A stretch of DNA of 64,000 nt from an uncultured Verrucomicrobiae bacterium (lineage in GTDB: Bacteria; Verrucomicrobiota; Verrucomicrobiia; Chthoniobacterales; UBA10450): assembly GCA_963772365.1 (NCBI GenBank), contig CAVYXA010000001.1, positions 736,001 to 800,000 on the forward strand, given 5' to 3'. The translations under genes and the position numbers were made by a program. Below the pieces are notes generated by a model that was not told the origin of the DNA, did no database searches, and worked only from the letters and a program-made list of their open reading frames with translations. This document shows positions 41,028 to 46,469 of the stretch, piece by piece. Numbering within the stretch: the first letter of the stretch is position 1; every line of letters begins with the position of its first letter.

Positions 41028-44000
41028 TTAATATTCGTGCTCCCAGTCATGACCGTCCGTGCAACAGTTCGTCACGTGCGTTGATTCGCGCTGAAGCGAC
41101 GCGCCGATCTTCGGATCGAAGTTCATCAAGAAGAGGTCGGGACTGGAATAATCAATGGCCTTCGACACAGTGCAATACAGTCCGGACTCGCCATCGAACC
41201 GCATCCCATTGAACAAATATGGATTTCCGATGGCGCTGGCAGGCAGCGGATTGCCTGAGCCGTCGAAGAAGTGCGGATCGCCGAAATCTTCGTATTCGTA
41301 CCGTTCAGCCGCGCCCCCAGCAGGGTTGGTCAACGGCCAGATCGCAACATCGGACCCCGCTCCGACATAGGTGAAATTATTCCCTGCGCGACGCATCTCG
41401 ACTGGGGCTAGCGAATATCGAGGATCCAACAATTCAGGCCAGGGGCCGCGTCCATCGTCCATCGTGCGCAAGTTAAAAGCCCAGTCGCTCTCGCGATATT
41501 GAACACAGTAGTCGCGCTGGCAAGAGCATTGGTCATCGCACATTTCGCCACCACGTTCTGTACAGACACCAATCGGGGGGAGCGGCTGGATCGGGAGATG
41601 TGGCAAATCGACCATCGTGCACAATACCCACCAGGGTAGAGACCCGCCACCGCCGTTCCAATCTCCTCCGCGAACCGGTACCGTGCTGTAGCCTGCTGTT
41701 ACCCCGCCGCTGCCGTCGCGCTCCTCCAGAACAGTGCGTCCAGTATAAAAGAAATTCGTGGTGTTCGGTTTCCCGTCGGGATCGAGTGTCTTCGCGATGC
41801 GACGACCATGCGCGTCGTATTGATAATTGGCAATCCGCAGACCGGTATTCACGTCGGTAAAATCGACAAGACGGTTTGCGTAATCGTAGGTGTAGTTCTT
41901 GTTCGCGCCGCCGCCGTTGAGACTAGTGCGGTTGCCATTGGCGTCGTACAAATAGTTGCCGCGGGGCGTGCTGGTATACTGGCTCATCTGCGCATCCGCG
42001 GGCTCGGGCGTCGTGTTATCCAGGAAATAGGGCCCGGGATCGGGTGTTTGAAAACCATTCACGGCAAGCCGATTGCCGTTGCGGTCGTAATTGTAAATCG
42101 TGTCGCGCACAAGTGTCGGGCCGGGCGCGTTCACTTGCGTATGCACATTTCGATTTGCCGGGTCGTAATCATAATGATGCAAAAGTTGCGGCCCGCCCGA
42201 GCGGGTGTCTGCGCGCTCGCTCAGGTTTTGGTTGGCATCGTAAGTAAAAGTGCGTTGATCGAGAACGATGTTGCCGAGTTGAAGCGTAACCGTGCCGGCC
42301 ACCTGTCCCCAGCCAAGGTCGGAGCTTGGCGGCGCGTCGACAAATCCATTGTAGCTGAACAATGTCGATGTTGCATTGCGGTGCGAAACACTCTCAGTCC
42401 GGCGTCCAATGTAATTATACGTCGCCATGGTTCCCAATGTATCGCCATCGCTTGTCGCCGTTAGGCTGACGCTCGTACAAAGATTTGCCACGTCGTGCGC
42501 GTAAGTGAGTGTGCGTCCACTCGGCGATTGCAACGTCAACAAATTGCCGACCGCGTCGTGTGTGTAGCTCGTAACCAGGTTCCCTAAACTTTCGCTGGTG
42601 CGGTGCGCCAGTGAATCGAAGGTGTAGCGCACGACTGCTGCATTGTTGATCGCGCGCTCAGGCCAGCGGTATTCGCCAGGGTAATCGTAAATCTCAAACG
42701 TTGTGGCGTTGGATACTCCCGGGCCGGGAATGATCTGGCGCTGACGAAGCCGATTCAGATTGTCGTAGTTATTGATACAGACAGTTGCGTTCTCATCGTG
42801 GGATTGAACTGCGTTGCCCCAGGCATCATAGCTCCAGGTTTTCGCCGTGGTGTCGGCATTCGTCCGCTGAAGACAGCGGCCCAGCGCATCGTACTGATAC
42901 TGGGTCGAATACGAATTGGGATTGGTCGCGCCGGTCAAACGCGAATTGTCATCCCAAATCCGCCCACTAATGACGTCGATCCCGGCGTCGAATCCTGAAC
43001 CGTTTCCGTTCATGTCGCGTCCGCTTCGGAGCAATCGATTCAGACCGTCATACTCGGATTGAACGAGCTTATTTCGCGGATCGATATATCGCACTCGATT
43101 GCTGCGCGAGTTGTACAAATAGCTTTGGGCATTCCCCACGTTGTCAGTCGAGGTAATTAGCCGATCCAAACCATCATAGACATTCGTCAGAACAAATACT
43201 TGATCCGACGACGCCGAATCTGATTTATCGGTCCGCGTCCGCGTCACCAGATTTCCATTTGAATCGTAGGTGTAATCGACGGAATTGGCTTTTGGATCGG
43301 TGATGCGTGAAAGGCGATTCGCGCCGTCATACGAAAACGATGTCGCGTGTCCGTTGTCATCTGTCACGCTTGTTACATTCAGCGCCGGATCACGTCCGAT
43401 TGAGATCGTGCGCGCGCCATCGTCGATCGTGGCCGTCGTGATCGGATCAAACCAACTCTCGGTCCTCTGGGTCAGAATACCGTTGGTATCGTAAACAAAC
43501 GTCCCGCCGCGTAGTGGGCCGAAGTTTGGATTGCCCTTCGCATCGAGAAAAGTCCCCTGCATCGTGAAATTCGTGACTTGATGGTTTTCATTGTAACCGT
43601 ACTGCGTGTTGGTTCCGACCGGATCGGTTAACATTGTTAGGCGATCAAAGCCGTCATAATCGTAAAGCGTCGTGTGCTGCAGCCCGGCGGGCGCACCAGT
43701 TTCGAGCCTGGCCAGATTACCATTGAGATCGTAGGTGAATTTCGAGCCGGTGGCGATTGGACTACTGGGCGCCCTGATCGCCGTAAACGGAAGATTCCGT
43801 TCATCGAATGCGTACCGCACGCGGGCATCCGGTTGCAAGCCGCCGGCCGCCAGCGGCGAGCGCATTTCGATCAACTCGCGAATCGGATCATAAAAGTATT
43901 GCGCCGTGATCGTGTGCGCATTGTCCAAGTCGCGTGTGATCGAAGTCACATGATCGAGTGAATCAAAACTGAAGCTGGTGACGAAAAACGCCGGCGTCCC

Positions 44001-46469: not shown

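Follow-up and report, generated by a model that had tools for sequence, protein, structure and literature searches.

In the window, a stretch of 64,000 nucleotides from an uncultured Verrucomicrobiae bacterium (contig CAVYXA010000001.1, positions 736,001 to 800,000 of the forward strand), one long gene encodes an RHS/YD-shell protein, P0001. The family of P0001 is one of toxin-less, secreted RHS shells whose hypervariable sites are mosaic, with signatures of the T6SS (type VI secretion system) tube and spike dominant among the pieces. Alignment of relatives shows the inserts of this family to be mosaics of short blocks. Two of the sites in P0001 each hold a short VgrG-type tile, and the evidence leans, if only slightly, to block copying together with selection as the origin of the two tiles. 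The features that carry the argument are as follows, with positions given in the window.

41028..46595, minus strand: maximal open reading frame (ORF), with 1,855 codons and a stop, for the RHS/YD-shell protein P0001

44481..44915, minus strand: hypervariable region 1 (HVR1), residues 561-705, from a MAFFT alignment of 9 clade members; 22-145 residues long in the clade

41406..41687, minus strand: HVR2, residues 1637-1730, just upstream of the C-terminal plug, also from the MAFFT alignment; 2-94 residues long in the clade

44733..44780, minus strand: VgrG-type tile 1, residues 606-621, whose first 9 residues are nonapeptide copy 1; positions 151-175 of a VgrG hidden Markov model (HMM), independent E-value (i-E) 1.3e-06

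41475..41516, minus strand: VgrG-type tile 2, residues 1694-1707, with nonapeptide copy 2 at 1696-1704; positions 157-177 of the VgrG HMM, i-E 1.4e-04

The VgrG-type tiles of P0001

The nonapeptide YCVQYRESD occurs at window positions 44754-44780 (copy 1) and 41484-41510 (copy 2), in both cases on the minus strand, corresponding to residues 606-614 and 1696-1704 of the single ORF 41028-46595(-). The two copies fall in separate sites, copy 1 in HVR1 and copy 2 in HVR2. The first-pass annotation had described an identical nonapeptide present twice with four codons differing, serine included, and this is exact: the two 27-nt copies differ at 6 nt in 4 codons, all of the differences are synonymous, and they include a switch of serine codon family. 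That account omitted the minus strand and the placement of both copies in one RHS/YD-repeat gene. The pair is listed independently by a repeat finder (family D6, 22/25 nt). When the residues of the protein were shuffled, an exact 9-residue repeat arose in 0/1000 shuffles, the longest being 7 residues, and only 2/200,000 random sets of 6 substitutions preserved the nonapeptide. Therefore, occurrence of the repeat by chance is excluded.

Protein likeness between the copies amounts to 11/15 residues and ends there. At the DNA level the alignment stops at about 33 nt, both by flank comparison and by the repeat finder, and a short Cys-x-Met-Val-Asp-like stretch upstream of both copies is out of register and gives no alignment. 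Given that the flanks cannot be aligned and that six synonymous differences separate the copies, a recent internal duplication is excluded, as the annotation had argued. Its appeal to protein-level selection on the motif also holds up, in that constraint fits a pair in which all six differences are synonymous. Extended similarity around the copies, named there as the mark of an old duplication, was not found inside the gene; across the family, the evidence does point to old copying of blocks.

Each copy forms the core of a tile (about 16 residues for tile 1 and 14 for tile 2) that matches, in profile and pairwise comparison, the best-conserved motif within the gp27-like domain of T6SS VgrG spikes. 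Tile 1 is identical at 15/16 residues to the VgrG of locus L033, which belongs to another family of the same order, and at 13/17 to residues 140-159 of P. aeruginosa VgrG1 (PDB 4mtk). For tile 2, the best stretch of the Pfam family Phage_GPD spans residues 1693-1712, and the tile is homologous to a longer one at the same site in the relative P0008; searched alone against PDB, it retrieved no VgrG at E <= 10, the query being too short. Phage_GPD scores 31.3 bits on P0001 against a cut-off of 30.1 (whole-protein E 1.6e-07), and it passes solely via two stretches of about 20 residues, each corresponding to positions 116-135 of a profile of about 305. The NCBIfam model VI_Rhs_Vgr reaches 34.6 bits against a cut-off of 186, and Phage_base_V, Gp5_C and Gp5_trimer_C give no Pfam match in P0001 at E <= 0.01, with fragments of them present only in relatives. 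An assignment of the host gene as a vgrG was considered and rejected, since its likeness to VgrG is confined to these two short stretches of an RHS protein. The label of VgrG nonapeptide was correct as to the signature, which is attested by the doubled match to Phage_GPD, by 4mtk and by VgrGs of the same order, but not as to the setting, for the gene encodes an RHS shell and no T6SS is detectable.

Chance resemblance, convergence or a chimera of the assembly would account for the tiles with nothing but the shortness of the match in its favour, and is barely credible. In addition to the shuffles and the whole-protein E-value for Phage_GPD, the pattern recurs in tile-bearing proteins from several independent sources (ENA, JGI, NCBI and Logan), and the ORF is open across HVR1 and HVR2 on a contig of 1.8 Mb.

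Mosaic inserts across the RHS family

A search for RHS-type relatives of P0001 found 901 at E <= 1e-10. The clade considered here consists of P0001 and the relatives P0003-P0010, which come from a large protein collection and have 53-75% identity. No orthologue of P0001 was found in the genomes of the 40 nearest species, including the unpublished G008, where the best match was 33% identical over about 300 residues, and a metagenome scan for relatives found one distant locus at 34% identity. In the nine-member alignment, a conserved scaffold is interrupted by a few discrete hypervariable sites: the N-terminal region before the DUF6531 domain, HVR1, HVR2, a short site in the C-terminal plug, and the tail.

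To describe the contents of these sites, HMMs were trained on sequences of the same order, 15 for VgrG and 9 for Hcp, and 120 relatives were scanned at i-E <= 0.005. The VgrG model found 25 stretches in 13/120 relatives, four of them in conserved scaffold, which leaves 21 tiles; the Hcp model found 10 stretches in 8/120. Altogether 15 proteins carry VgrG- or Hcp-type stretches, and within the nine-member clade six have tiles, the three others being P0003, P0004 and P0005. Besides the motif seen in P0001, the sites of relatives hold the continuation of the gp27 motif, two motifs of the gp5 OB-fold, gp5 beta-helix repeats, the N-terminal strands of Hcp and a C-terminal Hcp motif. The Hcp N-terminal tile lies at the exact predicted mature N-terminus of P0007 and P0008, and P0010 starts with the same tile. 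Pfam independently recognizes fragments of Phage_GPD, Gp5_C, Gp5_trimer_C, Phage_base_V and T6SS_HCP in relatives. The 14 proteins in one Pfam survey had been pre-selected as flagged and so do not represent the family fairly; in 22 further relatives taken without selection, Pfam found a single VgrG-type and a single kinase-loop fragment, along with a few other short pieces.

In more distant RHS relatives (P0082, P0117, P0081 and P0027), fragments of 16-64 residues occupy variable sites and the C-terminus, which is the usual place of the toxin. These fragments derive from EF-Tu domain 3, the cold-shock domain, RRM, the core of extracellular contractile injection systems, and a tyrosine-kinase-like catalytic loop. 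The C-terminus of P0081 is a complete gp19 tube domain, and that of P0095 is an Hcp-like region covering most of the profile, which follows a VgrG piece of 38 residues.

The scan also gave weak VgrG HMM matches in the conserved scaffold, at residues 1295-1357 of P0001 and in the core after HVR2 in P0004, P0006 and P0008, which cover HMM positions 265-322 and 87-122. A similar short VgrG-like piece lies within a YD repeat of L050, P0015 and P0016. These scaffold matches could be very old tiles or coincidence. Separately, the gene of one clade member is split near residue 1615 in its assembly: P0009 (1,671 aa) and P0126 (291 aa), on one 920-kb contig, together correspond to the intact P0127 (1,932 aa).

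No contractile injection system is evident in either of the two assemblies searched. The assembly that contains the window (3.35 Mb in 6 contigs, 90% complete) has no Phage_GPD match elsewhere, and Hcp, TssC/VipB, the gp25-like baseplate protein and the phage-type sheath gave nothing above threshold there, which at that completeness is not proof of absence. The genome of P0007 (G314) likewise had no Hcp, TssC/VipB, gp25 or sheath above threshold, no separate search with Phage_GPD having been made. VgrG is present in 50/301 sampled genomes of the order, located in other families, and Hcp in 26/151; within the own family of the organism, a Phage_GPD match or VgrG occurs in only 1/39 genomes. In a sample of the phylum, 24/401 genomes had a Phage_GPD match over the cut-off, and in the order and phylum samples only the two matches of the window are restricted to some 20 profile positions. 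Ascertainment does not account for why tube and spike pieces predominate in genomes that lack such systems. Neither type of tile, VgrG or Hcp, is present in the classical RHS toxin genes of the same two genomes. A second RHS gene of the P0001 assembly, on contig C4 at about 106-110 kb(-), has 1,743 codons and serves as a tile-free internal control; read by eye, it has a canonical C-terminal core followed by a further C-terminal domain.

The order of the tiles is unrelated to that of the source motifs in VgrG or Hcp. Pieces separated by hundreds of residues in VgrG adjoin each other in the shells, and one VgrG piece adjoins an Hcp piece. One Hcp-type tile recurs at two different sites, HVR1 in P0007 and the N-terminal region in P0010, and the two are identical at 30/40 residues. 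A VgrG-type block with one and the same non-VgrG block, which is presumably Asp-box-like, immediately after it is found at HVR1 in P0008 and at HVR2 in P0127. Since independent capture would not recreate the junction between VgrG and non-VgrG sequence, blocks are copied between sites. In HVR2, the upstream part of the VgrG block is common to P0001 and P0008, as is a short conserved stretch that precedes it; P0003 keeps the frame of the block with its middle lost, and P0127 and P0007 keep only the downstream part. This pattern looks like one longer ancestral block that was trimmed differently in each lineage.

Tiles shared by proteins with an overall identity of 35-70% are themselves 75-100% identical, for example at 13/13, 15/16, 24/28 and 31/34 residues. 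This conservation bears on a neutral explanation, in which an RHS effector of an ancestor that had a T6SS stood beside or was fused to hcp and vgrG, repeated local rearrangement scattered pieces of these into loops that tolerate them, and the pieces now decay without function. The genes for Rhs proteins commonly adjoin vgrG and hcp, the distant relatives P0095 and P0081 have longer C-terminal pieces, and different lineages keep different sub-pieces, as erosion by deletion predicts. However, neutral decay should blur the tiles rather than leave them better conserved than their scaffold, the N-terminal tile of Hcp occupies the predicted mature N-terminus of P0007 and P0008, just as in Hcp itself, and the tiles are scrambled in order and lie deep within the shell sequence. 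A purely neutral history is therefore unlikely, if still one to reckon with.

Host gene, locus and further features

The remaining features of the gene and its surroundings are listed below.

46469, minus strand: start of the database gene call P0002 (1,813 aa), the second possible start, 42 codons inside the maximal ORF

45957..46169, minus strand: DUF6531 (PF20148), residues 143-213, Pfam E 4.1e-11

41031..41405, minus strand: C-terminal core/plug and 11-residue tail, read against the motif in PMC10684867

46230..46307, minus strand: LruC fragment of 26 residues (97-122) in the N-terminal variable region, positions 2-27 of the 243 in profile TIGR04456

44619-44690, minus strand: FG-GAP-like calcium-loop stretch, residues 636-659 of HVR1, from the HVR1 search

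41454-41471 and 41607-41624, no strand assigned: 18-nt direct repeat (family D15), 16/18 identical, arms 153 nt apart, bracketing tile 2 in HVR2

46623..47603, plus strand: phosphomannose isomerase gene, divergent from the RHS gene, Pfam PMI_typeI_cat

The identity of P0001 as an RHS protein is carried by Pfam RHS_repeat (E 2.7e-46, in 7 stretches) and NCBIfam YD_repeat_2x (E 6.4e-31). DUF6531 is described as the N-terminal plug of Rhs proteins in PMC10684867. No Pfam match to PAAR, VgrG or the LXG trafficking domain was found at the N-terminus of P0001, which looks like a predicted Sec-type signal, with a charged start and then a hydrophobic stretch, as judged by reading the sequence. At the other end, the first part of the Rhs aspartyl-protease motif can be recognized by eye but the second, Asp-Pro part is missing; that part is replaced in 8/8 clade members that reach the C-terminal core, with a spacer of 3-26 residues, again by eye. 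PMC10684867 presents the two-part motif as defining self-cleaving Rhs toxins. P0001 ends 11 residues past the last conserved block and therefore has no toxin domain. Downstream, where an immunity gene is usual, lies the gene for the obg GTPase on the opposite strand.

Variable sites of P0001 also hold pieces unrelated to the T6SS. The LruC fragment (E 4.5e-07; 30.4 bits against an NCBIfam cut-off of 36) is a further borrowed motif of this kind. With HVR1 as the query, an exhaustive search gave 5 proteins at E <= 0.001, of which 4/5 are FG-GAP repeat proteins; a separate search of the HVR1 region among long proteins matched P0001 alone. One FG-GAP repeat protein, P0128 (695 aa), contains a 29-residue fragment of ribosomal protein S16 (E 8.9e-09), which hints that short borrowed motifs are perhaps present in other repeat proteins too. 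The 18-nt direct repeat around tile 2 could be a trace of insertion or of slipped duplication.

The neighbours of P0001 are housekeeping genes: obg, phosphomannose isomerase, NrdR, a HIT protein and an L,D-transpeptidase. A phosphomannose isomerase gene, at 8306-9265(-) of locus L037 and likewise matched by PMI_typeI_cat, also flanks the orthologue P0007, and it is divergent from the RHS gene in both genomes. Because of this shared divergent neighbour, the RHS locus is orthologous in the window and in L037, although the proteins are only 59% identical and their tiles are different. Near the orthologue, at L037 20280-22979(-), an 899-aa ORF has Pfam matches of about 1e-10 to DUF6087 and DUF2510 that consist only of pieces of 17-18 residues. 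No compositional anomaly was found in the RHS region. Given the synteny with L037 and the unremarkable composition, the RHS gene appears to be long resident in the chromosome and not a recent import. The conservation of the tiles and this long residence together favour purifying selection or repeated homogenisation of the tiles.

A rival view is that the two tiles are independent and fairly recent captures from different vgrG genes of other bacteria, without selection inside the RHS gene. The first-pass annotation had favoured two independent acquisitions, on the ground that the flanks of the copies are unlike each other and each resembles a VgrG variant. Both parts of that observation are correct, given that tile 1 extends the likeness to VgrG downstream and tile 2 upstream; different donors would easily explain the switch of serine codon family, and vgrG genes are available in other families of the order. 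The observation does not, however, make independent acquisition the favoured origin. VgrG-type blocks recur in HVR1 and HVR2 of relatives, and the composite blocks in both sites demonstrate copying between sites, which is a simpler origin. Tile 2 is old, since P0001 shares it at the same site with P0008 (59% identical overall). The own assembly is without a vgrG and the own family nearly so, and the composition of the region gives no sign of a newcomer. Two separate recent captures are, as a result of these points, distinctly unlikely.

Origin of the tiles and comparison with known systems

Under block copying with selection, short coding blocks would be copied into and between the variable sites, and the pattern suggests that the route may be illegitimate or homology-anchored recombination between diverged RHS alleles. 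Copied blocks would later be trimmed by internal deletions, such that both tiles of P0001 may be old descendants of one longer VgrG-type block. Purifying selection would then hold the peptide identical while synonymous sites drift. The weakest steps are that the beta-hairpin shell would tolerate or favour the tiles as strand-turn peptides, and that selection would maintain their likeness to the surfaces of the T6SS tube and spike.

Several observations weigh against this account. The closest relative, P0003 (75% identity), is without tile 1 and has lost most of tile 2, and neither the HMM nor the alignment found a VgrG tile in P0004 or P0005. Since such close relatives are without tiles and inserts range from 2 to 145 residues in length, some lineages at least can do without the tiles. 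Differences that are only synonymous would also be expected if the copies came from two vgrG donors and the constraint had acted there. The codon comparison is confined to the two copies of P0001, with DNA at hand for two family members only. An HMM finds short pieces only when they come from highly conserved motifs, and the impression that only consensus motifs are present is thus partly one of ascertainment. The pieces of LruC, FG-GAP, EF-Tu domain 3, cold-shock domain, RRM and kinase suggest general mosaicism rather than a role specific to the T6SS. An AlphaFold2 model of residues 1500-1855 (356 residues) has a mean pLDDT of 55, with values below 50 over model residues 143-229 inside HVR2, and gives no confident structure for HVR2, nor a placement of the sites as facing the lumen or the outside.

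The machinery that might do the copying was also not found with the gene. Searches of the whole assembly by blastn-short and tblastn, with the tiles and all variable regions as queries, returned only the regions themselves and each other, so that neither silent donor cassettes nor the donor DNA anticipated by the annotation was found in the genome. The assembly has no RVT_1 match indicative of a reverse transcriptase, and the repeat finder and blast against the assembly found no template-like repeat of the variable regions. Apart from the 18-nt direct repeat around tile 2, there is no recombinase or repeat system beside the RHS gene.

A more ambitious proposal, and a long shot, is that the secreted RHS shells of this clade would serve, in bacteria without a T6SS, as a scaffold for the display or carriage of peptides, in which shuffled, near-consensus strand-turn peptides kept at the hypervariable sites would act as mimics that dock onto, poison or titrate the corresponding machines of neighbours. 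Hcp and VgrG would be the sources of the peptides, joined in wider relatives by EF-Tu, cold-shock and RRM proteins, and cassette-like shuffling would supply a countermeasure or a weapon based on mimicry.

In short, a tip-less RHS family fills its internal sites with peptides that are signatures of other proteins, above all of the T6SS tube and spike, in organisms that yielded no T6SS. Should the tiles be under selection, they would represent a new bacterial mimicry of the weapon of a rival and a new use of the Rhs shell. If they are neutral, they provide a clear natural record of the capture and shuffling of short blocks inside a bacterial gene. There would then also be a warning for annotation, in that a Phage_GPD or Hcp match above the Pfam threshold may stem from 20-residue tiles in a protein that is not part of a T6SS.

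Rhs proteins are regarded as cocoons for a C-terminal toxin, with variation arising by exchange of that tip. P0001 shares with the Rhs/YD polymorphic toxins (Tse5, RhsA, Rhs1, TseI and WapA) the DUF6531 plug, the long run of YD/RHS repeats and the RHS-type C-terminal core. In contrast to them, it has an N-terminus read as Sec-type and no PAAR or other handle for the T6SS or the type VII secretion system, and it lacks both the second Asp-Pro motif and a toxin cargo. The P0001 family varies at internal sites by short pieces of foreign families, not at C-terminal tips. Diversification of the rhs family by recombination, with displacement of the C-terminal tip, is described in the abstract of PMC2935791, which has no mention of internal sites holding parts of other families. 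In passages of PMC3482391, VgrG modules are described as fused to the N-terminus of toxins, not as embedded fragments, and the literature searched contained no report of pieces of VgrG or Hcp embedded in Rhs proteins.

When compared to the VgrG/TssI spike (PF05954, TIGR03361; 4mtk), each tile of P0001 repeats the most conserved gp27-like motif. P0001 has only about 20 of the 305 profile positions, however, and no gp27 fold, OB-fold, beta-helix or T6SS genes.

Segmental gene conversion is used for surface variation in the tprK, vlsE and pilE/pilS systems. These resemble the RHS family in having a conserved scaffold, discrete mosaic sites and blocks that are reused elsewhere. The RHS genome differs in that it is without silent donor cassettes, and the RHS blocks resemble functional motifs of unrelated families. 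Diversity-generating retroelements are recognized by a reverse transcriptase and a template repeat, neither of which was found in the P0001 assembly. On a conceptual level, plant NLR receptors carry integrated decoy domains, and the likeness to the RHS family is that foreign pieces are held in a scaffold and kept similar to their source. The RHS pieces are of 10-40 residues rather than folded domains, and the scaffold that holds them is a secreted bacterial shell.

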